Below, piece after piece: positions 4,845 to 64,000 of a stretch of DNA of 64,000 nt. Source of the DNA: Centroscyllium fabricii (lineage: Eukaryota); NCBI GenBank assembly GCA_051313645.2, contig JBNRSN020000025.1:30132001-30196000 (forward strand), in the 5' to 3' direction. The position numbers and the translations under genes are program-made. Within the stretch, counting starts at the first letter, position 1, and every line of letters begins with the position of its first letter. The notes beneath the pieces are model-generated. The model did not search any database and was not told where the DNA came from. It saw nothing but the letters and a program-made list of their open reading frames with translations.

Positions 4845-5455
4845 AGAAGGTGCGGTCCAGGGAAGTGAAAGTCCAGGGATGGGAAGGGAGAAATGTTGAG
4901 GTCCAGGGGAAGGGAAAGTCCAAGGAAGGGAAGGGAGAAATGTTGAGGTCCAGGGGAAGGGAAAGTCCAAGGTAGGGAAGGTGAGGTCCAGGGGAAAGTG
5001 AGGTCCATGGAAGGTGAGACCAGGGAAGGTGAGGTCCAGGGGAAAGTGAGGTCCATGGAAGGTGAGACCAGGGAAGGTGAGGTCCAGGGGAAAGTGAGGT
5101 CCATGGAAGGTAAGACCAGGGAAGGTGAGGTCCAGCGAAAGTGAGGTCCATGGAAGGTGAGATCCAGGGAAGTTGAGATCCTGGGAAGGTGAGATCCAGG
5201 GAAGGTGAGGTACAGGGAAGGTGAGGTCCAGGGGTAGGTGAGGCCCATGGAAGGTGAGACCAGGGAAGGTGAACCAGGGAAGGTGTGGTCCAGGGAAGGT
5301 GAGGTTCAGGGAAGGTGAGACCAGGGAAGGTGAGACCAGGGAAGGTGAGACCAGGGAAGGTGAACCAGGGAAGGTGAGACCAGGGAAGGTGAGGTCCAGG
5401 GAAGGTGAGACCAGGGAAGATGAGGTCCAGGGAAGAGAAGGTGCGGTCCATGGAA
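4845..5455. repeat. Purine-rich minisatellite, 15-16-bp units
   Basis: Repeated GGGAAGGTGAG(G/A)(T)CCA. It generates the spurious LTFPG/PHLPW ORFs. Confidence 0.95.
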
Positions 5456-16399: not shown

Positions 16400-16818
16400 C
16401 AGGGGACACTCTTTCCCTCAGTAGAGGGGTCAATGCCCAGGGGGCATAGTTTCAAGGTAAGAGGCAGGAGGCTTAGAGGGGATTTGAGGAAGATTTTTTT
16501 CACCAAGAGGGTGGTTGGAATCTGGAACTCACTGCCTGAAAGGCTGGTAGAGGCAGGAACCCTCACAACATTCAAGTGATTTCAAATAAAACTGTTGGAC
16601 TATAACCTGGTGATGTGTGACTTCTTACATTTGTCCACCCCAGTCCAACACCGGCACCTCCACATCATGAACATTCAAGAAGCATTTAGACGAGCCATTG
16701 CATACAAGGCTACGGACCAAGTGCTGGAAAATGGGATTAGAATAGACAGGGCTTGATGGCCGGCGCGGACACGATGGGCCGAAGGGCCTCTTTCTGCGCT
16801 GTATAACTCTATGACTCT
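16400..16818 (+). mobile_element. CR1 3' fragment interrupted by a Penelope-like piece
   Basis: Near-identical to the uninterrupted copy at 30478-30810 once 16577-16679 is removed. Confidence 0.9.
16577..16669 (+). mobile_element. 5'-truncated Penelope-like 3' end
   Basis: 10-bp TSD AACATTCAAG (16567-16576, 16670-16679). The sequence matches the 3' end of the larger copies. Confidence 0.85.
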
Positions 16819-21716: not shown

Positions 21717-23424
21717 TCAGGCAAAGACAATCATTGCTAATGACAGACGGCACCTCAATCTAATTTTAGTTGTGCTGAAGAAAGGACTTTTGTAGTTTTC
21801 TAATTTTGTTTGTTTTTGAAGTGGGGGTGGGGTGTCGGGGGAGGGGAATCAGCACCTCGGAGAGATTCGACGTATTTTGACATTCATTACAATGATGTGT
21901 TTCTCTCTGAATTAAGATAAACAAAAGGCTTCCAAGGTGACGGCGTTCCGTCAAATTACCGTTGCATTTTACAGCTCCCACCGTCATAACTTTCTGAAAT
22001 GCAATTGTTAATGTTTTTTGTGTGCATTAAGTCTAATAATAGACAACATTTCATTCACATAGATATTATACATCAATTCAAAAACATTGCAGATACACAC
22101 ACACGGACCGACAGATCGGGATCTCCACAGAATCAAATAAAATAAAAATGAAGAAGTTTGAGAATTTTATTCTTCTTATGCCCGTTCTCTCCTGGTTGAG
22201 TACGGTCATGGATGCTGCCGGTGCTGAGTGGCTATTCTTCATGTGGGAGTAGCAGCAGGCTATTCGACAGTGGGGGCCTCACAGCCACCCCCGAATCCTG
22301 TCCTGGCCCAATGTTCGCACACGCCCAGTTATCAGCATTGGCCGCTGGGGTGCAGGGACCACAGGCTGATTGCATCTCCACAGGCTGCGGCAGTGAAGGC
22401 CTTGGAAGCGATCAGCTAACCCGAACCAGGGATCGAAGTTGGCCTTTATATGGGCAGCAACACATGAGGCAGAGGCATTTACACACCCAGCCACCAGGCA
22501 GCAAGTGTAAAAAGGTTTGCAATTTGATTGTTTCCATACAAGGAACTGATGACGACGGGTCTTGGGATGCAGCTCTGCAGGGTTGTGAGAACGTTGGATG
22601 TCTAGGTTGGGTACGATTGGATAGGCCGTCAACGTTCATTGTCCAGGCCCGTCCCGCGAAGGTTGGCAACTTGGGTTAGGTACCAAAGGGCTGCAAGTCA
22701 CCAAGGAACTGTACCCCAGCACGACCGACGCCTTCAGGAATGGAGGGGTTTGTGCACGTGTCTCTGCCAATTCTTGTCCATGTGCAGAATTAACTTTGTG
22801 CATTCTTAGCCCAGTGCAGCAGAAGAATCTGAAGCGTTCAAAAAGAAGGTGGACAGACTCCTCGTTCAGTGGGGGAGAGGAGGGGTGCAGGCGTGGCGCT
22901 AAGGCAAACGTGGAGCTGAACTGCAGTAGAATGGCCCTTTCTCTGCTATGCTCTTAGGAGTTTAGATCTGAAATTAGGGCAAACTGCGCAGGTGACAGAA
23001 AAACCTATATTTGTTTTGCCCATCACTTTAATAACCACATAAAAGCACGCACTCCCCTGCAAACAGTGTAGTCTTCAATATAAATGGCATGCAGCTACCT
23101 GTAGCATATACCATGGTCAGTGTTACACTACATGTACTCAGGCTCTGTTTCTCGGTCTCAGAGCATTTCCATAGGCCTAGATGTCTTATCAAGCGCTTGC
23201 TTTCGACAGCAATTTGCTTTGGAGACCATAGGTTTTCAAACTGGGGTTTCCAGATCGGGGGTCCACAAAGGGACCACAATGGGTCTCTGTGGTCAGTGGA
23301 TCTCTATCTTTTTCTGTATTTATTCATTTACTAACACTTTTCTGTTGCTGTGTAGAAATGCAAAAAAAAAACCTTTCCTGCAACAATAACACTGTTCCCG
23401 TGGATGGTTGACACCATCCTGTGG

Positions 23425-23940
23425 AGGTGTGTCAATATTAGCAGGGGATCCCTGGCAGTGTTTCAACATTAGCAGGGAATCCCTGACAGTGTGTCATTAT
23501 TAGCAAGGGATCCCTGGGCATGTGTCAATATTAGCAGGGGATCCCCAGGAACCTGTCAATATTTGCAGGGGATCCCTGGGAGTGTGTCAATATTAGCAAG
23601 GGATCCCTGGGAGTGTGTCAGTATTAGCAGGGGATCCCTGGGAGTGTGTCAATATTAGCAGGGGATCCCCAGGAACCTGTCAATATTTGCAGGGGGTTCC
23701 TGGGAGTGTGCCAATATTTGTAGAGGATCCCTGGGAACATGTCAGTATTAGCAGGGGGTCCCTGGGAGTGTGTCAATATTTGCAGGGGGTCCCTGGGATT
23801 GTGCCAATATTTGTAGAGGATCCCTGGGCGTGTGTCAGTATTAGCAGGGGATCCCTGGGAGTGTGTCAATATTAACAGGGGATCCCCAGGAACCTGTCAA
23901 TATTTGCAGGGGGTCCCTGGGAGTGTGCCAATACTTGGAG
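23425..23940. repeat. About 31-bp minisatellite
   Basis: Variants of gtgtgtcaatattagcaggggatccctggga in tandem. Confidence 0.95.
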
Positions 23941-25571
23941 GGGGGCTCCATAGGTTAACGTTTGAAAACCACTGGTCTATACAGTTGAGGCTCACTCTCG
24001 GACTGAGTCAGTCCGCAATGCACACGTTACAACAACAAGATTCTAACAACAACACAACTAGAAATGTTTTGTTCTTTGTAGCATCAACCAAATAAGTACA
24101 AGCAGAGTGACAGAATGACAGTACAGTTTTTGAGATGGAAAGTTGTAATAGATTACCTCCCTCCGCGTATGTAAGGGTTCAGCTCTAAGACTCCAGCAAA
24201 TGTGGTTTTCTTTCCTCCCAGTACGCTGTGGATAGCCATAGTAAAGTGTTTTAGAGGAATTGGTTGTTTTTGTTTGATTTTTTTTGTGTCTGATGTCACA
24301 TTGGGTACAGGTAAAGGCCACACAACATTAACTGCGTGCTGGACAATTTGCTTTTCTGTTTTCTTCCCGAATTGCAGAATTTGTTTATTCGTACTACATC
24401 TCGCACTGGGTAGACGCTGGACACAAAAGAATGGTTCAAGTTCCTCATATTGGCAGCGCCTGTTTTTGTAAGTCAGGACTGGAACCAGAGCTGATCAGGA
24501 TCTAAGGCGCTGAAAGTGAACTCAGAATAGTAGGACTTTCGGGGGGGGGTGAATGATTCATGTCACAATTGAGCAAGCTCAGCTGGTCGCTGTAAACAAA
24601 CTACAGCGATTGTCTCTGATGAATCTGTGTGGGATGTTTATTTTCTAGTTTGTTCTGGGTATGGTAGACCCCTAATGATATCTTTTATGGCTGAAATTGT
24701 GCGAATATTAGCAATGTGTTTGAATGAATTTCCTCTGTCTCCTGTTTTAGCCAAGGCACCAACCCATTGGGTTAGCCCCCTCATCAAGATAGTGGCAGAG
24801 AGATTTCTAACGAGTGTGTTACCAATATCACATCAGGCTGGTGCCATTTATTAATATAAATGTTTTTTTTAAATACAGGTTCATTCTAAAATTTGAGGTT
24901 GTCTGAACTTATTTCATTTGGGCCTTAGCAGCTGGGCAGAGAGAGGAGACTTTCATTGCATCAGTTTGGAACGATTCAAACCCAGGTCCCACACAGTCCC
25001 ACTATCGTATCCCATGAACGAATTCCCTATTTTTAACATCACCTGAAAGCAGGCTGTTGTTAGATTTAACGTCCTTTTTACTGACTCTTTCTGCAGATTT
25101 CCGTTTGGAACAGTTTTCTTTGCAGGGCACTGGCGGGTGACATCTGTGAAGGAACGGGTCTCGACAGAGCAAGGGCATACACACTCAAATGGACAAGGTT
25201 AATGAACTGTTAGCTGATTCAACTAAAATGTAGTTTTTAGATTGGAGACACGGGGACAGCAAACGGAGGTTATCGCAACGGACATTTAACCCATTTGTAT
25301 CAAAGCTTCTCTCTCTGCCATTTAATGGAGGGGTCAGTGTTTCTTCAAAATGGATTAACACCTACGTTCATTTAGCGGAGAAAGAAATTTGATTCGAATG
25401 CATCAATCACAGCAATTTCCAGGTTACAGGCAAAGAAAAAAAATGTTAAAGGGATGTTGAGGGATAAGGCCCATTAATGGCTTCATTCTTGGAGTTCTAT
25501 TTTTGTAAAGTACAACCCAATACTAGGCTGTCGCTTGGGGAATATTTCCAAAGCTCGAGCGCAGAAATACT

Positions 25572-29638: not shown

Positions 29639-30150
29639 ACATAAGAACATAACATAAGAAGTAGGAGCAGGAGTAGGCTGATCCGAACTTAGACTCACAT
29701 CCACTTCCCTGCCCGTTCCCCGTAACCCCTTATTCCCATATCAGCTAGGAAACTGTCTATCTCCGTTTCAAATTTATTTAATGTTGCAGCTTCCACAGCT
29801 CCTTGAGGTAGCAAATTCCATCGATTTACTACCCTCTGAGTGAAGAAGTTTCTCCTCATCTCACTTTTGAAAGGGCAGCCCCTTATTCTAAGATTATGCC
29901 CCCTAGTTCTAGACTCACTCATCAGTGGAAACATCCTCACCGCATCCACCTGATCAAGCCCCCTCACAATCTTATATGTTTCGATAAGATCGCCTCTCAC
30001 TCTTCTGAATTCCAGTGAGTAGAGGCCCAACCTACTCAACCTTTCCTCATAAGTCAACCCCCTCATCTCCGGAATCAACCGAGTGAACCTTCTCTGAACT
30101 GCCTCGAGAGCAAGCATATCTTTTCTTAAATATGGAAACCAAAACTGTAT
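29639..30150 (-). mobile_element. CR1 ORF2 3' fragment nested in an opposite-strand CR1 tail (29410-29638 and 30153-30205)
   Basis: QFWFPYLRKDMLALEAVQRRFTRLIPEMRGLTYEERLSRLGLYSLEFRRVRGDLIETYKI...RTRGHNL...FFTQRVVNRWNLLP. Confidence 0.92.
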
Positions 30151-30477
30151 GCAGAATGGCGGAGCAGGCTCGAGGGGCTGCATGGCCTGCTCCTGTTCCC
30201 ATAATGCTACCCTAGGTTTGTTAGAGTGGGTTACCCTAGAGCAGGCTGGTTTCTTCCCTTCTCCATAGGTTGGTCTCATGTGATTAGGCGGTCCTCAAAG
30301 CTTTTAGTTTCCAAGATACACAAGATGCATCAGCAGCTGGGTTCTGTGAGCAGATCGAAACTCTTGGGTTTAATGCTGAAACAGCATGAAGCAATTTTCC
30401 TTATTAGTCCTGGCCCCACGTGTTGAGTTACAAGTGCAGGCTTGCCTCCTGACCTCACACAACAGCGTGTGTTGCAT

Positions 30478-30810
30478 AGGGTAGATAGAAAGGAACTTTT
30501 TCCCTTAAGAGAGGGGTCAATAACCAAGGGGCATAGTTTCAAGGTAAGGGGCAGGAGGTTTAGAGGGGATTTGAGGAGGAACTTTTTCACCCAGAGGGTG
30601 GTTGGAATCTGGAACTCACTGCCTGAAAGGGTGGTGGAGGCAGGAACCCTCACAACATTCAAGAAGCATTTAGATGAACACTTGAAACGCCATAGCATAC
30701 AAGGTTACGGACCAAATGCTGGAAAATGGGATTAGAATAGACAGGGCTTGATGGCCGGCGCGGACACGATGGGCCGAAGGGCCTCTTTCTGTGCTGTATA
30801 ACTCAATGAC
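30478..30810 (+). mobile_element. CR1 3' fragment
   Basis: TKGHSFKVRGRRFRGDLRRNFFTQRVVGIWNSLPERVVEAGTLTTFKKHLDEHL. Confidence 0.9.
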
Positions 30811-30893
30811 ACAGTCTGTGTGGGGGAGGGGGAGAGAACGGAAAAGAACTGAAGATGACGTAGCAAAGGGCTAGTCTTCGATACAACAAGTCA

Positions 30894-31754
30894 TAATGTG
30901 GAGGTGCCGGTGTTGGACTGGGGTGGACAAATGCAAGAAGTCACACAACACCAGATTATAGTCCAACAGTTTTATTTTAAATCACAAGCTTTCGGAGCTT
31001 CTGCCCCTTCGTCAGGTGAAAGAGAGACTGACTTAAAGAACGCACATGTGTGATGAAGAGAGAAATCTGATATCTCCCACATCTCACCTCAGTAGAGATA
31101 GACACACAAAGGCTTATTAACATATTTTAAGTGTTTCATTTAAACATAGCATATATAGAGAGAGATAACAATGTGGTCTCTCCAGCTGTTTCACATCACA
31201 CCTCAGCTGAGAGACATCAAAGCAATCAAAGGTTTTCCAACATATCAAAGGTTGCAGTCACAAAGGGTCAAATGTTACAGTCTGCTTTAAATCCCACATC
31301 ATGATTTTTTAGAAACCAGGATTTTTCTTACTTAAAATCGCAGAACAATTCGTAAGAAAAATCCTGGTTTTTTAAAAATCATGATGTCGGATTTAAAGCA
31401 GACTGTAACATTTGACCCTTTGTGACTGCAACCTTTGATATGTTGGAAAACCTTTGATTGCTTTGATGTCCCTCAGCTGAGGTGTGATGTGAAACAACTG
31501 GAGAGACCACATTGTTATCTCTCTCTATATATGCTATGTTTAAATGAAACACTTAAAATATGTTAATAAGCCTTTGTGTGTCTATCTCTACTGAGGTGAG
31601 ATGTGGGAGATATCAGATTTCTCTCTTCATCACACATGTGCGTTCTTTAAGTCAGTCTCTCTTTCACCTGACGAAGGGGCAGAAGCTCCGAAAGCTTGTG
31701 ATTTAAAATAAAACTGTTGGACTATAATCTGGTGTTGTGTGACTTCTTGCATTT
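30894..31754. mobile_element. Penelope-like insertion as a 403-bp inverted repeat
   Basis: Arms 30929-31331 and 31352-31754, 20-nt spacer and a 35-nt unpaired extension on the left. 13-bp TSD ATACAACAAGTCA at 30881-30893 and 31755-31767. Confidence 0.88.
31664..31701 (+). ncRNA. Minimal hammerhead ribozyme motif (mirror copy at 30982-31019 on the minus strand)
   Basis: TCAC-CTGACGA-A-GGGGC-AGAA-GCTCC-GAAA-GC-TT-GTGA: stem I TCAC/GTGA, CUGANGA and GAAA cores, 5-bp stem II, palindromic AAGCUU in place of stem III. Confidence 0.75.
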
Positions 31755-32687: not shown

Positions 32688-33038
32688 ACCGAAATAAAAG
32701 TGGGCAAAAGAGATTTTTAAAGACGGGAGGAGTGAGGTTAGGTAGCTTGAGCCAGATAAAAACTTCAACCTCATCCTGGGGACAGCACGAAAATGATTTG
32801 GTGCAAAATGAAATGATTGATGAGACCGATGCATCGTTCAATATTGACCTCGAGCAATTGATCAAGTTACAGTTTGTCACAAATTAAACCAGCTGAATGG
32901 ACTTAACAAAAAAACTCTTGAGTGGCGTAGCCTTTAAGGCCCTGAAATCACTTCTTGTGACATTAGTATATTCAACACACCTAGTTGAAATTTATCTGTC
33001 CATTATTTTATCAGAGGTACTTAATCATTGACATTTAC

Positions 33039-33190
33039 GTGGAGGTGCCAGTGTTGGACTGGGGTGGACAAATGTAAGAAGTCACGCATGCATCTCTTCA
33101 CTTCACCTGACGAAGGGGCAGTGCTCCGAAAGCTTGTGATTTCAAATAAAACTGTTGGACTATAACCTGGTATTGTGTGACTTCTTACAT
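33039..33190. mobile_element. Penelope-like insertion with inverted ends and a hammerhead motif at 33103-33139 (+)
   Basis: TCAC-CTGACGA-A-GGGGC-AGT-GCTCC-GAAA-GCTT-GTGA, with an inverted tailed end on the left. Confidence 0.8.
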
Positions 33191-33194
33191 AAGA

Positions 33195-33745
33195 CAATTA
33201 CAGCACAGAAGGAGGCCATTTGGTCCATCATCTCTGTGCCGGCCCTTCACTAGAGCAACTCAAAACCAATCCCACTGCCTGCTCTCCCCACAGCTCTGTA
33301 TCTTCCTCGGCTTCAAATACCTCTCCAATTTTCCCTTAAAAGATGCAGTGGCCTCAGCCTCAACCACTCCCTGCGGCAAAGTATTCCATGCTCTGTGAAA
33401 TTAATATATTTCGCCTAACCTCTCCTCACTCTCTTAGTCACAATTTTAAATTGATGACCCCTCATCGCTGACTCCCCAACCAGAGGAAATAGTCTTTCCC
33501 TATCCACTCAAAACTCTTCCTAATTTAAAAAACTCCCAGTAAATCTCTCGGCCTTCTCTGCTTCAGTGGAATCAATCCCGATAACTTAAGTCTCTCCTCA
33601 TGACTATTGTTCTCCATCCCTGGCAGCACCCTGGTGAATCTATGCTGGATGCTCGCTATGGCTTTAATGTTCTTTCTATATTGAGCCCCAAAATTGCACA
33701 CAACACTCAGGGGCCTAATCAATGTCTTGTACAAATGTAACATTA
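33195..33745 (-). mobile_element. Diverged CR1 3' fragment
   Basis: LYKTLIRP...IQHRFTRVLPGME...EERLKLSGL on the minus strand, followed by a CR1-type tail. Confidence 0.75.
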
Positions 33746-33957
33746 CTTCTTTACTCTGGTACCCTATACTTAATTAAAAGTCATTTAAAGACACTGAACA
33801 CCTGTATTAAAATAATAGACAGATGAATTTCATCAGAACGCATTAAGTGCCTGAATGCTAATATCACACAATGTCATTCTACCCGTAAGCACTGTTACAG
33901 TCTGGCCTGAGAGAATAAAAAAGTAAGTGGCAGAAAGATTGAGAGATTGAAAATAGT

Positions 33958-34278
33958 GGGCGGCACGGTGGCATAGTAGTTAGCACTGTTGCGTCGCAGC
34001 GCCAGTGTCCCGGGTTCAAATCCAGCCTCGGGTGACTATCTGTGTGGAGTTTGCACATTCTCCCCGTGTCTGCGTGGGTTTCCTCCAGGTGCTCCGGTTT
34101 CCTCCTACAGTCCAAAGATGTGCGGGTTAGGTTGATTGGCCAGGATAAATTGACCCTTAGTGTTAGGGGGATTAAATATGTGGGGGTTACGGGGATAGGG
34201 TGGGATATGTGTCGGTGCAGGCTCGATGGGCTGAAATGGCCTCTATCTGCACTGTAGGGATTTTATGATTCTATGATT
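33958..34278 (+). mobile_element. V-SINE, short tail
   Basis: Same head and body, ending gctcgatgggc...tatctgcactgtaggga plus ATTCTATG-type repeats. Confidence 0.9.
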
Positions 34279-34436
34279 GAGAAGCCCAGAAGCCTTGTGT
34301 TCATACCTATGACTCAAACGGATTGATGTCCACTTATACAAGAGCCTAGAAATCCCACTGTGTGATATTGGGATACGGCACTTAACAGGTTTATCTAACA
34401 TGACTTTATTTTTTAACCTCAAATAACCTCCATTAA

Positions 34437-34739
34437 TGCAAGAAGTCACACAACACCAGGTTATAGTCCAACAGCTTTATTTGAAATCACAAGCTTTCAG
34501 AGCGCTGCTCCTTCGTCAGGTGAAGTGAAGAGATGCATATAGGCACAGCATATATAGTCAGAGAACACTGCCAGATGATTACAGGTAATCTTTCCAACTG
34601 CCCTTTATCACACCTCAGCAGAGAGATAATCACAGCAATCAAAGGCGTGAATGGTGTCCAAACAGGTCAGTCAGGAAACCTGGTGTTGTGTGACTTCTTA
34701 CATTTGTCCACCCCAGTCCACCACAGGCATCTTCACATC
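34437..34739. mobile_element. Penelope-like insertion with a hammerhead motif at 34487-34523 (-)
   Basis: 14-bp TSD ATAACCTCCATTAA (34423-34436, 34740-34753). The minus strand reads TCAC-CTGACGA-A-GGAGC-AGC-GCTCT-GAAA-GCTT-GTGA. Confidence 0.82.
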
Positions 34740-34857
34740 ATAACCTCCATTAAAGCAGTGGACCAAGTCACTTCATCTTAAATACTCGTACCTTAATATC
34801 ACACGGTGGAATTTATAAGCCAGGAACTCCAGTGTGAATTCCAAGCTGCATTCCAAG

Positions 34858-42369: not shown

Positions 42370-44357
42370 ATTGAGGGAGGTTACGGGGCACTTTAGGGGG
42401 TGGATTAGGAACCACTGTGACAGGTGGACACCAATGGATTCATGAAATAAATGATTCAGCAGAGAAACATTTTGGGGTTTAGTTTCTTCTGTGTGCCATT
42501 TTTAGTTTGTTAAAGTCCTGGCCACACTATTTGAACATGCATGTTCATTGAAAATAAGTAACTGTATTAAAATATGCTGGGTAGAATCATTAACCAGTGC
42601 GTTAAAAACTGTGCAGAGTGTAAATGAAACCCCTCTATAGTAACTACTGCTGTGAATAATAGTGTAAGTGCAACTGTCTTCCTGTGATCACTCATGTACT
42701 GGCTAGGCCTGTTGTAAGCAGAATAAGTGTAGCCACCCTTCTTGTGAACAATAGTGCAAATGGAGCATCTTGCACTGATAGTAGTGTCACCAGCACCACC
42801 CTGCTATGAACAGCAGTGTAAGTAGGGTTACACTATTTCTTGCACAATTAGTACCTGCAGCAAATTATCCTCCAGCCCCAGTGTAAACACGGGGGCCAGG
42901 GGTTATAGACAAGAACAAAGGGTGAAAAAGGTCTCGGGTTCCATCTCTAGACTGTGCTAAATTAGCTCTCTCTCAGTCAAGTAGGAGTATGGGGTATTAT
43001 AAATGTTCTAAAGACTCCCTCGTTTAGGGTGTGGGGCGGGGGAAGCACATACCAGGGTGACTGCACCTGAACACTATCTGTGACTCATGCCGGAAAATGC
43101 ACGTGTGTGGATTTTGGGTCGAGGGACAAGACTGAGCTCGGCTTTGCCGCCCTACACAGTCAAATAGCTGGCCAACATTCGCGGCTTAAGACTCACACGT
43201 GAAGACCAGCCATTGTCTTCGTGAGGGCTGAGGTGTCCGTGGAACTGTACCTCAGCAAGAGTTAGTGTCTGAACTCGATGAAGAGCGGTTGGGGGGGGGG
43301 GGGGGGGGGGCGGTAGGTGTGGAAAGCATTCCTATTTTTGCAAATTGTCTGGGAAAAGATCGATAATTTTCTATAACATGCTGCAGCTTTAAATGCGACC
43401 AATCATTTTGATTTTAGCCTGTGACATCAGCCATTTGCATGCAGTCATTCCAAACTGGGTAATCCATTGTTATTGTTCAACTCGGGCTGGAAAACCTCAC
43501 GGGGAGCTAGCATACTCGCAGGGGTGCTTCTGCGAGCTGGCTCATGGGATGCAACACCAAGCTCTCGGGAATTTCGGGAAAAAGCAAGCCGTCACCGTGA
43601 AGAGATACCGTCTGCGTTAACTCGTTATTTCTCCGGCACGGGCTTTCGCCCGCTGGGAGGGCGGCTTCTGGTCAGAATGTGTCGGAGGCACTTCCTGTTT
43701 CTATTTTCGAATAAAGTGCGATTCCCGCTTCAGTGCTGAAGTTACGAGGAGCGTTGGACTGGCGGCCAGCTCTCCTACATCACCTCTGAGCACTGATGTT
43801 CTCTGCAAATCAAATCATGAAACGTTGACAGCACCACGAGATGCCGGGTGGACGTTTCTGGATTTAAAAGTTAAACATCATAAATAGTCAGGTTTATTTT
43901 TTATTATTAGAGATATGAACCAGCAGAGTAAGTACCATTTTTATAAACACTCCTTTACCACAGTCAGGATCTTCAATGGATTGTGACAACGAAGATAGAA
44001 AAGGTCGTCTTTTTAAAAATATATTTTTCCCAGGTAATTAATAGCAAGAACTAAAGAAATTGAATTGCACTTGAGAAACACGCCTCTCCCCCACTCCACA
44101 CCGGCACTTCCATCAGCTAAAGGTGATGGTGAGGAAAGCTGAGGGCTAGGCTATGATGCCCCACTATCAAATAGCTTGCTAATGTGCATGCTTTGGCAAC
44201 AACGGTTGATACCATTCATGCCAATAAAGCTTTTTGAATTGTGAATTGTGAATTGCATGGTCACATATGAGAAATAGGCTCTTGAGTGAGGAACTGGGGA
44301 GGTGGCGGGGGCGACTAGACCTCAGCAAGGAAAATATTTCCAATGATCAATGAGCTT

Positions 44358-46555
44358 GGGGGGAGTGGGATGGTGGGGGGAGTGGGGTGGTATGGGGGAG
44401 TGGGGTGGTATGGGGGAGTGGGGTGGAGAGGTGTGAGGGGGAGTGGGGTGGTGTGAGGGGGAGTGGGGTGGTGTGAGGGGGGAGTGGGGTGGTGTGGGGG
44501 GGAGGTGTGGGGGGAATGGCGTGGTGTGGGGGGAATGGGGGGTGGGGTGGTGTGGGGGGAGTGGGGTGGTGTGGGGGGAGTGGGGTGGTGTGGGGGGGAG
44601 TGGAGTGGTGTGGGGGGGAGTGGAGTGGTGTGGGGGGGGGGTGGGGTGGTGTGGGAGGAGTGGGTGGCGTGGGGGGGGTGGGGTGGAGAGGTGTGAGGGG
44701 GAGTGGGGTGGCGTGGGGGGGAGTGGGGTGGCGTGGGGGGGAGTGGGGTGGCGTGGGGTGGTGTGGGGGGGGTGGGGTGGTGTGGGGGAGTGGGGTGGTG
44801 TGGGGGGGGTGGGGTGGTGTGGGGGAGTGGGGTGGTGTGGGGGGGGGGAGTGGGGTGGTGTGGGGGGGGGGTGGGGTGGGGTGGTGTGGGGGAGTGGGGT
44901 GGTGTGGGGGGGAGTGGCGTGGTGTGGGGGGGAGTGGCGTGGTGTGGGGGGGGGGTGGGGTGGTGTGGGAGGAGTGGGGGGGGTGGGGTGGTGTGGGAGG
45001 AGTGGGGGGGGTGGGGTGGTGTGGGGGAGTGGGGTGGTGTGGGGGGGAGTGGAGTGGTGTGGGGTGGTGTGGGGAGTGGGGTGGTGTGGGGGGGGGGTGG
45101 GGTGGTGTGGGGGGGGGTGGTGTGGGGGGGGTGGGGTGGTGTGGGGGGAAGTGGAGTGGTGTGGGGGGGAGTGGGGTGGTGTGGGGGGAATGGGGGGGTG
45201 GGGTGGTGTGGGCGGAATGGGGTGGTGGAGGGGAATGGGGGGGTGGGGTGGTGTGGGGGGAGTGGGGTGGGGTGATAGGGGGAGTGGAGTGGTGTGGGGG
45301 AGTGGGGTGGTGTGGGGGGGAGTGGAGTGGTGTGGGGGGGGTGGGGTGATGTGGGGAGTGGGGTGGTGTGGGGGCGGTGGGGTGGTGTGGGGGAGTGGGG
45401 TGGTGTGGGGGAGTGGGGTGGTGTGGGGGAGTGGGGTGGTGTGGGGGGGAGTGGGGTGGTGGAGGGGAATGGGGGAGTGGGGTGGTGGAGGGGAATGGGG
45501 GGGTGGGGTGGTGTGGGGGAATGGGGTGGTGGAGGGGAATGGGGGGTGGAGGGGAATGGGGGGTGGGGTGGGGTGGTGTGGGAGGGGTGGGGTGGTGTGG
45601 GAGGAGTGGGGTGGTGTGGTGGTGTGGGGGGGAATGGGGTGGTGGAGGGGAATGGGGGGGTGGAGGGGAATGGGGGGTGGAGGGGAATTGGGGGGTGGAG
45701 GGGAATAGGGGGGTGGGGTGGTGTGGGGGGAGTGGGGTGGTGTGGGGGGGAGTGGAGTGGTGTGGGGGGGGGGGGTGTGGGGGGGAGTGGAGTGGTGTGG
45801 GGGGGGGTGGTGTGGGGGAGTGGGGTGGTGTGGGGGGGAGTGGGGGCTGGGTGGTGTGGGGGAAATGGGGGAGTGGTGTGGTGTGGGGGGAATGGGGGGT
45901 GGTGTGGTGTGGGGGGAATGGGGGGTGGGGTGGTGTGGGGGGAATGGGGGTGTGGGGTGGTGTGGGGGGAATGGGGTGGTGGAGGGGAATGGGGTGGTGG
46001 GGTGGTGGAGGGGAATGGGGTGGTGGAGGGTAGTGGGGTGGTGGGGGGAGTGGGGTGTGGGTGGGGTGGTGGGGGCTGTGGGGTGGGGGGGAGTGGGATG
46101 GTGGGGGGGAGGTGGGGGGGGTAGTGGGGTGGTGGGGGGGGAGTGGGGTGGTGGGGGGGGAGTGGGGTGGTGGGGGGGGAGTGGGGTGGTGGGGGGGGAG
46201 TGGGGTGGTGGGGGGGAGTGGGGTGGTGGGGGGGAGTGGGGTGGTGGGGGGAGTGGGGTGCTGGGGGGGAGTGGGGTGCTGGGGGGAGTGGGGTGGTGGG
46301 GGGAGTGGGTGGTGGGGGGGGAGTGGGGTGGTGGGGGGGGGGGGGGAGTGGGTTGGTGGGGGGGGAGTGGGGTGCTGGGGGGGGAGTGGGGTGGTGGGGG
46401 GGAGTGGGGTGGTGGGGGGGGAGTGGGGTGGTGGGGGGGAGTGGGGTGGTGGGGGGGGAGTGGGGTGGGGGAGTGGGATGGTGGGGGGAGTGGGTTGGTG
46501 GGGGGAGTGGGGTGGTGGGGGGGATTGGAGCGGTGGGGGAGTAGTGGGGTGGGGA
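44358..46555. repeat. 2.2-kb G-rich simple repeat with G-quadruplex potential
   Basis: Variants of GGGGGGAGTGGGGTGGTGT with almost no C on the plus strand. Confidence 0.95.
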
Positions 46556-48006
46556 AGTCAATGGGTGAGCACTCTATCCTTTCACCCCTGGATCAGGCCA
46601 GACTGTAAATGAGGATGTACGTCTCCTCTGTCAGCTGATTGTAAAGGTTCTACGTGAATTAAGCCAGGACATTCTCAATCCACTTCCAAATGGACAGAGC
46701 CCTACTTTGGGGCTCACTGGCATGGAATTGGCATTCTCACTCTGAGGCCACCGGATGGTTGGTGTGGGAAATGGAATGATGTCATACTGGTGCAATAGGG
46801 GGCACTTTAAGTTTGGGAAAAAAGCCACAATGTTGGGGCAGAGAACATAAGAATGTAAGAATTAGGAGCAGGAGTCGGCCATACAGCCCTTCAAGCCTGC
46901 TCCGCCATTCAATAAGATCATGGCTGATCTTTGACCTCAACTCCTCGTTCCCGCCCAATCTCCATTTCCTTTTACTTTGCATCTAGCCCATGCAATATCT
47001 CTGAGCTGTATCTCTGATCTGGGAATGCCTGATGCTGACACTGGGCTCCTGAAATGGAAAGTGTTCCATTTCCCAGGACACATATCCCATAAAATGTTTT
47101 ACAAAAGTTTTGGAAACATATGCTGGCTTGCCCTTATTACTAAAAAAAAAAGGGAACAGAATATAAGGGAAGATCAAGCATTATAAGTGGTGTTTGCTGG
47201 GACTGTGAGAGCGACCTGAAGAATCTCTGTTGGACATCCTTCTGAAATAAAAGGCAGATCAGCTGCAACCGGTACACCGTTTACTTCATGAATGAACTAC
47301 TCGATTCACAGGAGGCACTGTCCTAGCCACCCTCTTTCTGGGAAACCCTCATTAAAATGCTGCTGCATCAGAATGACATCATCTCCTCTGCCAATGTGCT
47401 GAGACTTAACACTGAGCTCCACCATTGGCATGACAACCAGGACAGGGAGGTGGGGAGGGGTGGATCAGTATTCTGAACTGAACCAACGGTAGAATACAAT
47501 GTGGTAAGGGTCGCAGCCATAGTTTGGCCTCAGACTTCAGATGGTTCTAGGTCAACTTGCAGTCTGGCGTCCACGATTGGCTTGGTTCTCCAAATGCCAA
47601 ATTTTGGATCAACAGGAACTCTGCATTGGACCTCAAACATCCAAAGATCAAATAGTCATACCCTTACGTATAGTAGAAACATGCTGTGTGGCTTCAACGT
47701 ACAGTATCACCCTCCAAAGCACCGAACACCATGTTGAAACCCCATCATGGTCCAGTCTGGGCTCCATTTATCCTTCGTGATAATGCCAGGGGTGTCAGAG
47801 ACAATACCATTTGAGCCAGGAAGTGTACACTTCCACTCTGTTACGAGCACCATCTGGCTTTGCTTGGCTTTTCCATTCCTGAAGATCTTGGTGTCAAATC
47901 CCATGAGCCAACTGGGTTCCAAGTTAAAACATTTTTATCGGGAAACTCCTGGATGTGGTTCATATCATCCAGTATCCCACAATTCATCGCAAGTGTCATT
48001 CTGGAT

Positions 48007-54419: not shown

Positions 54420-54539
54420 CTGAAACAAGACCGAGGGAAACAAAATACAGCTCACTTCAGTCCTAAAAGTGCAGCACATCAGCGCGCAGTGAGGCGTTTG
54501 TGTTCGGGTGACTTTACATTAGAGCACTGCCAATGACAG

Positions 54540-55370
54540 ACATGGGGTTCACCTGCTGACTTGCAAATGTGGGGTTCACCCGCTGACTGGCAAATCTGGG
54601 GTTCACCCGCTGACTGGCAAATGTGGGGTTCACCCGCTGACTGGCAAACGTGGGGTTCACCCGCTGACTGGCAAACGTGGGGTTCACCCGCTGACTGGCA
54701 AATGTGGGGTTCACCCGCTGACTGGCAAATGTGGGGTTCACCCATTGACGCAAATGTGGGGTTCATCCGCTGACTGGAAAAAATGGGGTTCGCCCATTGA
54801 TGCAAACGTGCAGTTCACCCATTGACGCAAACATGGGGTTCACCCATTGACACAAATATGGGGTTCACCCATTGACGCAAACATGGGATTCATCCATTGA
54901 CGCAAATGTGGGGTTCACCCATTGACGCAAACGTGGGGTTCACCCATTGATGCAAACGTGGGGTTCACCCACTGACGCAAACGTGAGGTTCACCCATTGA
55001 CGCAAACATGGGGTTCACCCATTCAAACGTGGGGCTCACCCATTGATGCAAACGTGGGGTTCACCCATTGACACAAACGTGGGGTTCACCCACTGACGCA
55101 AACGTGAGGTTCACCCTTTGACGCAAACATGGGGTTCACCCACTGATGCAAACATGGGGTTCACCCATTGACGCAAACATGGGGTTCACCCATTGGCGCA
55201 AACGTGGGGTTCACCCATTGACGCAAATGTGGGGTTCACCCATTGATGCAAACGTGGGGTTCACCCATTGACGCAAACGTGGGGTTCACCCATTGACGCA
55301 AACGTGGGGTTCATCCGCTGACTGGTAAGCGTGGGGTTCACCCATTGACGCAAACATGGGGTTCACCTGT
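54540..55370. repeat. Minisatellite with 27-bp then 25-bp units
   Basis: gtggggttcacccgctgactggcaaat grading into gtggggttcacccattgacgcaaac. Confidence 0.95.
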
Positions 55371-55531
55371 CAATGGTTGCACTGAGATAACAGCCCGAGC
55401 TCCAAGGAGCACCGTGGTCACGAGACTCCATTTGTTTGCCACATCCCAGGGTCCCCTTAGAAAACATAAAAATGCTTTTTATCTATAATAACTCCAAAAC
55501 ACAAACAGCAGTAAAGGGAGTTTCACTGCAT

Positions 55532-56080
55532 CAGAGTAACACACCCTCCGACTGGGAGTAACACACCCTTGATTAGGAGTAACACACCCTCGATTGGGAG
55601 TAACAAACTCTCCAACTGGGAGTAACACACCCTCGATTAGGAGTAACACACCCTCGATTGGGAGTTTCAAACCTTCCAACTGGGAGTAACATACCCTCGA
55701 TTGGGAGTAACACACCCTCGATTGGGAGTTTCAAACTTTCCAACTGGGAGTAACACACCCTCGATTGGGAGTAACACACCCTCGATTGGGAGTTTCAAAC
55801 CTTCCAACTGGAAGTAATACACCCTCGATTGGGAGTAACACACCCTCGATTGGGAGTTTCAAACCTTCTAACTGGGAGTAACACACCCTCGATTGGGAGT
55901 TTCAAACCTTCCAACTGGGAGTAACATACCCTTGATTGGGAGTAACACACCCTCCAACTGGGAGTAACACACCCTCGAAAAGGAGTAACAAACCCTCCAA
56001 CTGGGAGTAACACACCCTCGTTTAGGAGTAACAAACCCGCCAACTGGGAGTAACACACCCTCGTTTAGGAGTAACACACC
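55532..56080. repeat. Composite minisatellite of 21- and 22-bp units
   Basis: gggagtaacacaccctcgatt interleaved with gggagtttcaaaccttccaact. Confidence 0.95.
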
Positions 56081-56185
56081 TTGCAAGCTGAGGCCTCAGA
56101 CCAGCTCCCTGGTGAAAAGCTGAGGCCTCAGTACTAGGCCCCAAAGAAACTGAGAGAAGAATTCTGCCCACACGTGATGTCCTAC

Positions 56186-58138: not shown

Positions 58139-58150
58139 TAGTAACTTTCA

Positions 58151-58364
58151 TGATGTGGAGGTATCGGTGTTGGACTGGGGTGGCCAAATGTAAGAAGTCA
58201 CACAACACCAGGTTATAGTCCAACAGTTTTATTTGAAATCACAAGCTTTCGGAGCGCAGCTCCTTCATCAGGTGTACACCTGATGAATGAGTAATGCTCC
58301 GAAAGCTTGTGATTTCAAATAAAACTGTTGGACTATAACCTGGTGTTGTGTGACTTCTTACATT
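58151..58364. mobile_element. Penelope-like palindromic insertion with two back-to-back hammerhead motifs (58239-58274 minus, 58277-58312 plus)
   Basis: Palindrome centred on CAGGTGT|ACACCTG (58275/58276). 14-bp TSD TGTAGTAACTTTCA at 58137-58150 and 58365-58378. Confidence 0.85.
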
Positions 58365-59919
58365 TGTAGTAACTTTCAAAAGGGAATTGGATAAATACTT
58401 GAAAAGTGAACATTTGCTGGGCTCTGGGGAAAGAGCAGGGAGTGAGACTAATTGGATCGCTCTTTCAAAGAGTCGGCACAGGCACGATGGGGCGAATGGC
58501 CTCCTTCTACGCTGTATCATTGTATGATGGTGTGAGGGCAGGCACGTCATCGGGGCTTTCTTCTCACTCCGTACCACACCCGTTTACAAAGCAACATATC
58601 CCCTTAAAGTGAGAATGAAACACACATTGCCCATGGTGTCTGATGGCTTCAGTGAAGGGAATCCACACAGCAGATGGCTGGACTGACAGTGCTAACACAC
58701 ACACGGTGCCGCAGTGTGGCGAGACCCAGCTCTGCTTCCACACTCCCACCTGCTTCAGAGCTTTGGACCTCTGCTACCATTGCGGAAGAGTTGACAAGAG
58801 AGTTCTCCTGTTGTTGGGGAATGGGAAGGAAATTCAGACATACAGGCATCACTGCCCAACCTCAACCAATGTCAAAGGGGCCTCCCAGCCCCGTGACCTC
58901 TACTGTCAAGAAGGAAAAGAGAAGCAATGTCATGGGAACGCCATCATCTCCTGACTTGGACATACTTTGACGTTCCTTCAGCATCACCAGGTCACTATCC
59001 TGGAATTGTCTACCCAACGCCATCGTGGGAGCACCATCACAAGGACTGCAGCGGTTCGAGAAGAAGGCCCTCTACCACCTTCTCAGGGTAACGGGAGATG
59101 TGCAATAAATGCCAGCATTGCCGGCCACACCCACATGCCGAGAACATATTCATTTTAAAGCGGCAAGTTCACAGCAGCTATCGACAGTGCCCTGCAAGTG
59201 AGACTCCACCTCGCCCAGGCGCCCTCTCTCATTGTCAACAGGACATGTTTGGTAGCACAGGGCAAAAGGGAGGACAGGAAAGACAGTTTCTGCTCAGCTT
59301 ATCTATTCCGTGGCAGCGCAACTATTATGCCGATAGGGTGAGATGAGGTCGGGTGGGAGGAGGCTTGTGTGGAACATAAACACCAGTATGGTGCAGTGGG
59401 GCCGAATGGCCTGTTTCTGTGCTGTAAATTCTATGTAATTCTGTGCATGTAATTCTATAACTTTGAACGCAGCTATTAAATCTCCACTCAAATGGCTCTG
59501 CTGTGAGGAGAACAACCCCAGCTTCTCCAGTCTCTTCACATAACTGAAGTCCCACATCCCTGGTACCATTCTGGCGAATTCTCCTCTGCATCTTCCATAG
59601 AAAACTGAGAGGGCTGCACACAAAATAAAATCACTTAATCTGATTTTAATTATAATTCAAATAGAACAGTTTGACTTGATTTGAAAGATTCTACTTGTCA
59701 TATGGAGACAACACACAGCGACCCAAAGCTCCAACGCCTTCAGAGATCTGGATAGAGTGCTCACGACTCAAAGCTCCATTAAAAAAACAGTTACACCAAA
59801 CTTGTGCCCAAATTCCACTTTCTAATACTCGGTTGCTTAATAACTCACAAATCAACAGCTAAATATCACAGCGGTGCAAAATGAATGAAATCAAAATTCC
59901 ATGTGTGCAACTGCATTAC

Positions 59920-59940: not shown

Positions 59941-61649
59941 CTTGCAAAGTGAATACAATACAGCATTAGTACCAGAGAAATGAAAGGCTCTTCTATCCAA
60001 AAGAGAAGCTTGCCCGAGTCAGTGCTGGGACACAACAACAGCAGCAACAAGCAGCGACCCAGTGCCTTTAACATGGAACAACATCCCAAAGGTGCTTCAC
60101 AGAGGCACAATCAGACAGAAATGGACGCTTTGCCAAAGAAGGAGTGATTAGTAAAGGGTGACCAAAAGGTCAGTCAAAGAGGTGGGTTTTAAAGGGGGTC
60201 TTAAAAGAAGAGGAGGGGGTGGCTGGGGGGTTAGGGAGGGAGCTGGAGCTGCAGAGGGCAATTTTTAACTTTTACGCGCAAACACGGTAGACCTTCAGTG
60301 TTCTGAAGCCCCCCCCGCCTCCCCTCCATCCGTGTTTCAGACACTGATAGGAACAGGAGGAGACCAGTCACTCCCTCGAGCCTGTCCCGCCAGTCAATTG
60401 GATCATGGCTGGTCTGTATCTTAACTCCAGTTTCCCGCCTTGGTTCCGTAATCCTGAATTACCCTTGCCTATCAAACCCGAACAGACTAAGAAAAAGTGT
60501 TTCTGTACAGTTGTACCGAACCACCACTCCCAGCTTTTGAGCAGGTTCCCGTTGGTTTTATTTGTTTTTTCCAAGCTTCTCCGCTCCTCTGCGGAAGATG
60601 CTGATCCGAGCTGAGGTTCAGCTCCAAAGCAGCGGACCACCGACTGGTTCATTCTTTGTGTGTCAGGCCAGGCAGTGATAGCAGTGCGGGAGGGGGCAAA
60701 AACAGCCCAGCCCGATCTCTACCCCCCCTCCCCCCCTGATGCCCACAAATGTGCAGCTTCCAGCCGGGGTCACTGGATGATAGTGCTCAGGAGCTGGGTG
60801 CTGGGGGTCTTGCTGACTGGTCCTCTCTCGAGTCCCAAGGTTGATGAGGCCAATGGTAACGCTCTTTCCAGCTGCGATAAACTAACTCAGCGCGGACCGC
60901 GGATTGAATCTGGGAGCTCTCGGTCTGTATGTGGGTTAATTTTAACTTTGTGGTGGTAGTGTAAAGTGGACGCCCGTTATCCACCCCTTCTCCCTCCCTC
61001 ACCCCACCCACCCACCGCTGGTTTTCCTTCAATCGGGAGCGGTGCACAAACGGGCACCTGATGCGGTATCGCCTGTTTTGCAGCATCAGCGAAAGTTCAA
61101 ATGCCCCGCGGTGGCTCAGTCCCACAACGGGTGCTGCCGCTACCAATGTCAGCATCAGGGGGCGGGCTGCTTCAGATGGTGGTTCAGACATTCATGCCAG
61201 GAATTGTTGCCGGGCAGGTCTCCCGAATGGTGGAAGATCGGCAGAAACTCTGTCTACGGCCGCCAATCGGCAAAACCCCAAAATCCACGGGGACCAATAT
61301 TCTGATGTAAGTAAAGGTGGCAGGCATATCCCTGAGGCTCCTGACTGCCCTAAGAGGCTGGCAATCCTGGGGGATGGCAGTCTGCTTCCAGGAGGGGGAG
61401 GAGGGGCTGAGAGGGAAACCCCATCCCCCATCCCCCACAGAAATCATATCAGCAACCCATTGCACCCCCCGCCCGCTTTGTAAGGGGGCTAAAAATAAAG
61501 TTGTACCCCCAACAAGTCTTTGGGAGTCCAGGCCCGACCCTGGTGGTCCCAACATACACAAATAAAGAGCCAGTGTGCCTCCTTCGTTTCGGCATTACGA
61601 CCACCGTACGTCCACCAGGATTCCCAATGTAGCGAGCTCCCGCTCCCAG

Positions 61650-62020
61650 CCCTGCCCCTCTCCCTCTCCCTGCCCCCTCTCCCTCTCCCTGCCCCTCTCC
61701 CTATCCCTCTCCCTGCCCCTCCCCCTATCCCTCCCCCTCTCCCTCCCCCTCTCCCTATCCCTCTCCATCTCCCTCCCCCTCTCCCTGCCCCTCTCCCTCT
61801 CCATCTCCCTCCCCCTCTCCCTCTCCCTATCCCTGCCCCTCTCCCTATCCCTGCCCCTCTCCCTATCCCTGCCCTCTCCATCTCCCTCTCCCTGCCCTCT
61901 CCATCTCCCTCTCCCTGCCCTCTCCATCTCCCTGCCCCTCTCCCTATCCCTGCCCTCTCCCTGCCCTCTCCCTCTCCCTATCCCTGCCCTCTCCCTCTCC
62001 CTCTCGCTGCCCCTGCCCCT
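61650..62020. repeat. C/T-rich low-complexity repeat
   Basis: Tandem ccctct/ccctgc/ccctat hexamers. Confidence 0.95.
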
Positions 62021-63173
62021 GTCCCAGCTTCCTTGCATCACCCGCCTTAGGAAAGGCACACAAAAGTGTACTGAAAATTTAAAATGAAATAATTTCAAAT
62101 AAAGTTTGTGAAGTTAAATCTCCTATGCTAAATGGGGAGTTACTGTTGTTGGAGATTGAGTTTAGCACTCGTATACCATCAATACTCATGTTTCATCGAG
62201 TGAAAAATACAAAAGAAGCTCGGGGGGTGGGGATCGCAATTTTAACTGGCGGGATCGGGTGCAACGCTGGTTTTACTCCCCACCCGGTTTTACTTTCTGC
62301 TAATGTCAATATTGGGCGGGGTGTAAATCCAGCTTTCCACCCAATTCCTTGGGATTCCCATCCAGGGAGTTAGGTTAAAATCCCTCCACCTCCCCCACTC
62401 CCACCGCATCTAAGGATCTAAGGTGGAAAGCAGGCAGCAGAAGTTGATTTTTATTTTATTATTAAGAAATCTGAGTGAAGGTCCGAGGCCATATTGTGCA
62501 GGACACAGAGCACAGGCTGAACAGAGCAGCAGAGAACACAAGACAGATCAGGAAATAGGGATTAGGTGGCACTATGATTGGCTTTTGAAGCGTTTGAAAA
62601 CTTGGAGATTGTAGGAAGAAGTAATGGCAGAGGGAGGTAGAACTACACTTCTGAGAAGCTGGGAAATATTAGCAGGACTTGGAGACGGAGCAGTGTGTTT
62701 TGATTTCAACACAGTGAGGACGCAGAGAGGGACGGGTGTGTAGGATGGTGTATCGAAGAAGGTAGAGAAGCAGTAACCAAAGTAGCCTCAATAAAATAGT
62801 GAGGGACAAGGAAGGTGACGACAAGGAGAGAGAGGTTGGAGACCAGAGGTGAGAGTTGGATCTGGGCTCTTCCCATGTACCAGTCAGCTGTGAAAACTGA
62901 CTGGGCTTCAGACGAGGTATTGATGAACAGCAGCAGGAGATGCCAGTATCAGTCATTGGGAGCTAATCCATTCCAGTTCCCACTGGCTAATCCTCTTGTG
63001 CTTCGCTTGTTGCCATCTGTTTCGATCATTTGTGTAACTACTGGAACAAGGCCAGGTTTAGTGCTTTTTATTTACACTGTTTTTGTAAATTCTTTTCTCA
63101 TCAAACTGAGGGGTGTTAGTGTTTGGGGATGGAACACTTCCAGCATTAACCATCCACAGCTGAAGCACAGCTA

Positions 63174-64000
63174 GTTAGATACAGAGTAAAGCTCCCTCTA
63201 CACCTCGACACTGTCCCATCAAACACTCCCAGGGCAGGTACAGCATGGGATAGATACAGAGTAAAGCTCCCTCTACACTGTCCCATCAAACACTCCCAGG
63301 GCAGGTACAGCACGGATTAGATACAGAGTAAAGCTCCCTCTACACTGTCCCATCAAACATTCCCAGGAGAGGTACAGCACGTGATGGATACAGAGTAAAA
63401 CTCCCTCTACACTGTCCCATCAAACACTCCCAGGGCAGGTATAGCACGGGTTAGATACAGAGTAAAACTCCCTCTGCACTGTCCCATCAAACACTCCCAG
63501 GGCAGGCTCAGCCCGGGGTAGATACAGAGTAAAGCTCCCTCTACACTGTCCCATCAAACACTCCCAGGACAGGTACAGCACGGGTTAGATACAGAGTAAA
63601 ACTCCCTCTGCACTGTCCCATCAAACACTCCCAGGGCAGGTACATTATGGGTTAGATACAGAGTAAACCTTCCTCAACACTGTCCCATCAAACATTCCCA
63701 GGAGACGTACAGCACGTGTTAGATACAGAGTAAAGCTCCCTCTACACTGTCCCATCAAACACTCCCAGGACAGGTACAGCATGGGTTAGATACAGAGTAA
63801 AGCTCCCTCTGCACTGTCCCATCAAACACTCCCAGGGCAGGTACATCATGGGTTAGATACAGAGTAAAGCTCCCTCTGCACTGTCCCATCAAACACTCCC
63901 AGGGCAGGTACATCATGGGTTAGATACAGAGTAAAGCTCCCTCTACACTGTCCCATCAAACACTCCCAGGGCAGGCTCAGCCCGGGGTAGATACAGAATA
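63174..64000. repeat. 67-bp satellite, at least 12 units, running off the window
   Basis: gatacagagtaaagctccctctacactgtcccatcaaacactcccagggcaggtacagcacgggtta with period 67 (63253 to 63320). Confidence 0.97.

Follow-up and report, generated by a model that had tools for sequence, protein, structure and literature searches.

Within the 64-kb window (the whole stretch of DNA analysed here), a short single-armed insert, which is the 3′ terminus of a hammerhead-bearing repeat likely of the Penelope type, begins at the base where the hammerhead of longer family members is predicted to cut its RNA. The insertion is real, well formed and of a known kind, and the prediction of the cut site is correct; the copy as a record of cleavage is unproven, a start at this base being not clearly beyond chance. 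We judge it narrowly probable that the insert start arose by 5′ truncation with no cleavage required.

The element stub itself is ordinary, and genomic 5′ junctions made by ribozyme cutting are already established for R2, where, in the available sections of Eickbush et al. 2013 (PMC3774820), cleavage by an HDV-like ribozyme sets the 5′ junctions. R2 offers a likeness in that ribozyme cleavage fixes where the RNA begins and the cDNA run-off joins the target by microhomology; the ribozyme and the element differ, and the R2 cut was assayed and marks full-length copies, whereas the cut considered here is predicted and would mark a minority of stubs. For Penelope hammerheads, the available text of the 2014 discovery paper (PMC4209133) describes in vivo evidence as absent and contains no analysis of breakpoints, and that of a 2021 survey (PMC8557442) calls hammerhead function unclear. 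A real spike at the cut would bear on whether these ribozymes cut in vivo, and a base-precise excess of genomic 5′ ends there would, if real, amount to in vivo evidence obtained purely from DNA, as in the case of R2. In a literature search mostly of titles and abstract openings, with subscription journals thinly covered, we found no report of 5′ ends enriched at the hammerhead cut in Penelope-like elements.

The insertion and its repeat family

Positions 16560–16683 read CCCTCAC, AACATTCAAG, 93 nt (16577–16669), a second AACATTCAAG and AAGC (Table 1). The G at 16576 can be assigned to either side, giving a 10-bp target-site duplication (TSD) with a 93-nt insert from element position +2 or a 9-bp TSD with a 94-nt insert from +1, positions being counted from the predicted cut. 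Because a paralog of the host repeat (88% identity over 141 alignment columns) carries one AACATTCAAG, followed by AAGC and with no insert, the duplication is a real TSD that arose on insertion, which bears out an earlier note's description of a 93-nt insert flanked by a 10-bp TSD that shares its G. An assembly artefact or gene conversion instead of transposition might be suspected from the high copy number of both insert and host repeat; it is highly improbable given the exact TSD set against the empty paralog, and given that the other insertions of the family agree with this one in tail end and TSD length. The peptide of the host repeat is 45% identical over 56 amino acids to that of a window open reading frame (ORF), and a Pfam search of host repeat and related ORF returned no family; we take both to be likely LINE 3′ ends, CR1-like for the host repeat. 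Relative to the paralog, the host repeat lacks 11 nt at 16693–16694, a gap 14 nt downstream of the TSD.

Table 1. Features of the insertion, its host repeat and its relatives in the window.
Feature	Position	Strand	Remarks
Host repeat around insert	16400..16739	+	Peptide resembles window ORF 29698–30294
Left TSD copy, AACATTCAAG	16567..16576	+	9 bp (16567–16575) if G is counted as element +1; single in empty paralog
Insert	16576..16669	+	Element +1/+2 to +94 from predicted hammerhead cut; single arm, no inverted partner
AC-rich 'tail', about 37 nt	16633..16669	+	Ends CATCATG
Right TSD copy, AACATTCAAG	16670..16679	+	Exact repeat of left copy
Host-repeat paralog with empty target site	30594..30734	+	Alignment to host repeat
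Head-to-head insertion	30892..31754	.	Arm starts about −360, −346; TSD up to 13 bp
Head-to-head insertion	33039..33190	.	Arm starts about +39, −48; exact TSD looked for, none found
Reference minimal type I hammerhead	33103..33139	+	Stem I UCAC/GUGA, CUGACGA, extra A, 5-bp stem II, GAAA, GC, UU; predicted cut before 33136
Head-to-head insertion	34435..34741	.	Arm starts about −186 (estimated by eye), +28; TSD up to 14 bp
Head-to-head insertion	58149..58367	.	Both arms start −32, front edge of hammerhead; TSD up to 14 bp

A BLAST comparison of the insert with the window recovers nine arms in five insertions, four of which are head-to-head pairs; the copy at 16576–16669 is the only single-armed one. 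In the pairs, one arm reaches +88 to +94 and its partner ends, tail-less, at +55 to +59, the tail thus standing on only one arm of each. Over the 55 nt compared, the insert differs from the majority of seven arms at one position, and the first 15 bases of target beyond the tail are 60–73% A+T in five of five arms. A 15-mer proposed in the earlier note has nine matches in the window at up to two mismatches, against 0.28 expected, and seven of the nine are family arms. The longer arms, which that note had called full copies, turn out to be truncated stubs without an ORF themselves, the longest (454 nt) having stops in all three sense frames. Eight of the nine arm starts lie away from the cut, scattered from −360 to +39, and since at least four of these eight fall within 50 nt of it, short stubs are the norm in the family. 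Two of the arms (30986–31345 and 34525–34676) have a 130-nt end in common and diverge upstream of about −35, so the window holds at least two subfamilies.

Our assignment to the Penelope type rests on layout and ribozyme rather than on a reverse transcriptase. Endonuclease-positive Penelope-like insertions are described, in the sections available of PMC8557442 and PMC3846280, as carrying a pLTR, an optional tail of 30–40 bp (the tail is also described in PMC11167929) and an inverted 5′-truncated copy, with high 5′ truncation typical (PMC8557442) and TSDs of 8–10 bp (PMC3846280). The family in the window likewise has a 30–40-nt optional tail on one arm only, inverted, 5′-truncated head-to-head partners in four of the five insertions, frequent 5′ truncation, short TSDs and a hammerhead near the 3′ end; its TSDs measure 9–10 bp at 16567–16679, and three neighbours have TSDs of up to 13, 14 and 14 bp. 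It differs from that description in the single-armed copy that starts at the predicted cut, and it may belong to either the Penelope/Poseidon or the Neptune clade. The earlier label of a Penelope-like copy therefore stands on tail, one-sided tail arms, inverted partners, TSD and hammerhead, with reverse transcriptase and endonuclease forming no part of its basis.

We consider it likely that a Penelope-like element inserted into the older repeat by target-primed reverse transcription, producing the 9–10-bp TSD, and likely that the CATCATG tail end marks the reverse-transcription start. The insert, its TSD, the empty site, a tail end common to other copies and a hammerhead motif upstream in longer arms are direct observations. 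For the anole Poseidon element PAc, the available text of PMC11167929 gives AT-rich targets, reverse transcription from two sites bounding the tail, and an AC-rich stem-loop downstream of the hammerhead, all of which have counterparts in the window. We also observed that UGUUGGACU can pair with AGUCCAACA as a long hairpin (16592–16648) that spans the tail-less end and is common to all tail-bearing arms folded; it may be likened to the AC-rich stem-loop of anole Poseidon in which reverse transcription begins.

The hammerhead motif and its predicted cut

The six other arms extending across the site all have GAAAGCTT, followed directly across the cut by GTGATTT, two of them with TTTAAAA for TTTCAAA. 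A minimal-hammerhead descriptor, written after the motif had been seen and allowing one mismatch per stem, matches exactly these six arms and has no match in 30 base shuffles of the window. Since it puts the cut directly before GUGA in every one, the cleavage bar drawn there in the earlier note was correctly placed. In the six arms the motif runs through a 4-bp stem I, CUGANGA, one extra base, a 5-bp stem II, GAAA, GC, U16.1 and U17 to GUGA, with exceptions: stem I has one mismatch in two arms, position 11.1 is a U in one, and stem II is damaged in one. An Rfam hammerhead search gave nothing at the gathering score in the window and nothing at E up to 10 in 33000–34800, a miss that would be expected, since these are minimal forms without helix III.

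These arms resemble the minimal hammerheads described in the available parts of PMC4209133 in their 4-bp stem I, the extra base between 9 and 10.1, G10.1–C11.1, and the palindromic 15.2–16.2 with no real helix III, for which a dimer is predicted to be necessary. The insert differs from them, as it lacks the ribozyme core and consists solely of the strand lying 3′ of the cut. A non-LTR retrozyme consists of tandem units each with a complete hammerhead, as far as the accessible text of bioRxiv 10.64898/2026.07.22.740005 describes it; the insert, a single unit without the core, does not fit this description.

The predicted hammerhead fold appears only marginally stable. Isolated as 41 nt, the reference motif at 33103–33139 has stems I and II in its minimum free energy fold (−10.5 kcal/mol), and isolated motifs fold no better than shuffles (z −0.75 for the reference and −0.69 for another). 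In free folding of 75-nt windows the hammerhead fold appears in none of five arms, stem II being kept in two.

Truncation or a cleaved template

That one of nine arm starts should be exactly compatible with the cut has a chance probability of 0.026 under a uniform spread or 0.075 under the local density of the other eight, and 0.06–0.17 within ±1 nt; over 55 windows of the genome, at least one exact match is expected with probability 0.76–0.99. The warning already attached to the earlier observation, that one copy could be a chance truncation, thus stands. With the TSD read as 9 bp, the match is nonetheless exact to the base, with p < 0.1 within the window, and the catalytic motif fits its descriptor in six of six arms; both points count against a truncation unrelated to cleavage. 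The shared G was rejected as evidence, since run-off at the cut and a truncation at +2 with 1-nt microhomology fit it equally. The ends of the insert can also pair in the predicted fold, GUGAU (16576–16580) with AUCAU (16664–16668), at z −1.6 and with 10 of 200 shuffles as good; we rejected this pairing as a cause of the breakpoint, its +1 to +5 side not being favoured in two longer arms.

A genuine possibility, if one that falls short of probable, is that hammerhead self-cleavage supplied the template as its 3′ product, with a 5′-OH at GUGAUUUC, and that reverse transcription from the tail ran off after 94 nt, leaving a 9-bp TSD; the copy would then be a genomic record of germ-line cleavage. 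The exact coincidence with the descriptor-predicted cut speaks for this, as does the single-arm layout, found in only one insertion of five, which is what run-off at the 5′ end of an RNA should produce; because the copy is single-armed, fold-back pairing cannot explain its start. If 1–5% of insertions came from cleaved RNA, the likelihood ratio over chance would be 1.6–9, a modest support, and at 2–5% the probability that the copy at 16576–16669 belongs to that class would be 0.56–0.89. In R2, genomic 5′ junctions do correspond to ribozyme cuts, according to the available sections of PMC3774820, and those of PMC11167929 report that the anole ribozyme cleaves in the presence of the element's protein; since reverse transcription starts internally at the tail in that account, cleaved RNA would keep its priming site.

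Against a cleaved template stand the single instance (n = 1), at 1/9 arm starts and 1/5 insertions in the window, and a large look-elsewhere factor. Folding predicts stem I for one full arm, at a pair probability of about 0.9, and not for another. Position 17 is a U, and in a dimer A14 could pair with U17 through AAGCUU, which would probably slow cleavage. Minimal hammerheads are poor cleavers in vitro in the available parts of PMC4209133. For anole Poseidon, as far as the accessible text of Frangieh et al. 2024 (PMC11167929) goes, the ribozyme is dispensable in vitro: hammerhead mutants insert unchanged, uncleaved RNA is the dominant substrate, no RNA-seq reads begin or end at the cut, and genomic copies starting there receive no mention.

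Truncation unrelated to cleavage is accordingly our best explanation, held at slightly better than even confidence, and in its favour are also the eight arm starts that lie elsewhere, short stubs as the family norm and the 5′ truncation typical of these elements. An endonuclease nick in A-rich target DNA would have primed reverse transcription at the tail end; the nick in AT-rich DNA and the internal start at the tail are carried over from anole Poseidon, as given in the available text of PMC11167929. Synthesis of cDNA would then have halted after about 93 nt, either at random or at an RNA structure beginning there, candidates being stem I by its 3′ strand (+1 to +4) and the self-complementary AAGCUU at −6 to −1, and the shared G may then have served as 1-nt microhomology for joining the cDNA end to the upstream target strand.

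It is improbable that the RNA began at +1 in another way, through an internal transcription start or a protein nuclease acting at the unpaired hammerhead core, or that a longer insertion lost its 5′ part later. Promoters are carried by pLTRs (PMC3846280 and PMC6765202, in the parts available), and near-cut junctions do arise in other contexts: one contig of run X2 (depth 87) passes from the tail end through five further letters to position +3 (joint 30983 to 30892), though this is one of 12 rows listed and one is too few. The insert itself offers no promoter or cap evidence for an internal start, and its intact TSD abuts the junction, which argues against a later deletion.

A broader proposal, that a minority class of family insertions is cDNA of self-cleaved RNA and that the genome thereby holds a countable fossil record of germ-line Penelope hammerhead cleavage, is tenable but doubtful in our view. 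The copy at 16576–16669 does not supply evidence of cleavage; it defines the best class to count, namely copies with a single arm and a TSD that are joined to target. Single-armed, target-joined copies would be the cleanest members of a cleaved class, because stem I fold-back pairing cannot explain their start.

Loose ends in contigs and further observations

Contigs from four runs of three coded organisms were aligned to the longest arm (46,662, 52,783, 4,590 and 2,760 contigs), of which 2,459, 2,573, 282 and 167, respectively, fit only in part; they cover the same 130-nt element end. Among the rows listed, 3′-side loose ends fall at +89/+90/+94 (407, 423, 30 and 18+45 contigs) and at +50/+51/+59, so that tail-bearing and tail-less ends both occur, and 13 rows of 5′-side loose ends at −13/−14, −32, −35, −104, −119 and −262. 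None of these 13, within the 24 of 993 rows listed under a ranking rule that is not stated, lies at the cut site. This favours truncation over a cleaved template, as weak evidence only, because of the unstated rule and because rows of only two contigs appear for one run. In the two smaller runs every row listed has at least 16 of 282 and at least 12 of 167 contigs, and a cut-site peak there would lie below about 6–7% if rows were ranked by count. A dominant cut-site peak in the contigs is unlikely, and a peak of a few percent is compatible with the rows listed.

The rows at −13/−14 (16–120 contigs) were rejected as breakpoints, their loose letters being element sequence past a loop-II indel of the reference arm, and in those at −32 and −35 possible true ends are mingled with differences between subfamilies. 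Of 14 joint rows listed, two touch the cut (+34 to +1; +63 to −2), as single contigs at a depth of about 4, and these are too few to weigh. A tabulation of positions shared by many molecule starts or ends had no entries for the four contig runs, and the 24-nt family motif had no occurrence in metagenome contigs. RNA runs X16–X21 consist of contigs, with 0.05–0.10 of the words, and contigs cannot show RNA ends. Upstream of 31029, contig cover is almost nil in two of the coded organisms.

Several contigs (depth 67–89; joints 30926 to 30896) carry the tail in tandem with 9-nt spacers, in a 40-nt unit derived from the tail. The final ATG of the tail may be an ORF start, since pLTRs overlap ORF starts in other Penelope elements. 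At 58149–58367, both arms begin with the first C of the CAC that precedes CUGA and meet around the palindrome CAGGTG-TA-CACCTG, whose antisense CAG/GTG resembles a splice donor motif. Elsewhere the window contains long tandem or low-complexity arrays at 44315–46600, 54500–56150, 61600–62030, 63070–63970, 23340–24020 and 4970–5440, one of them with an extreme G skew.
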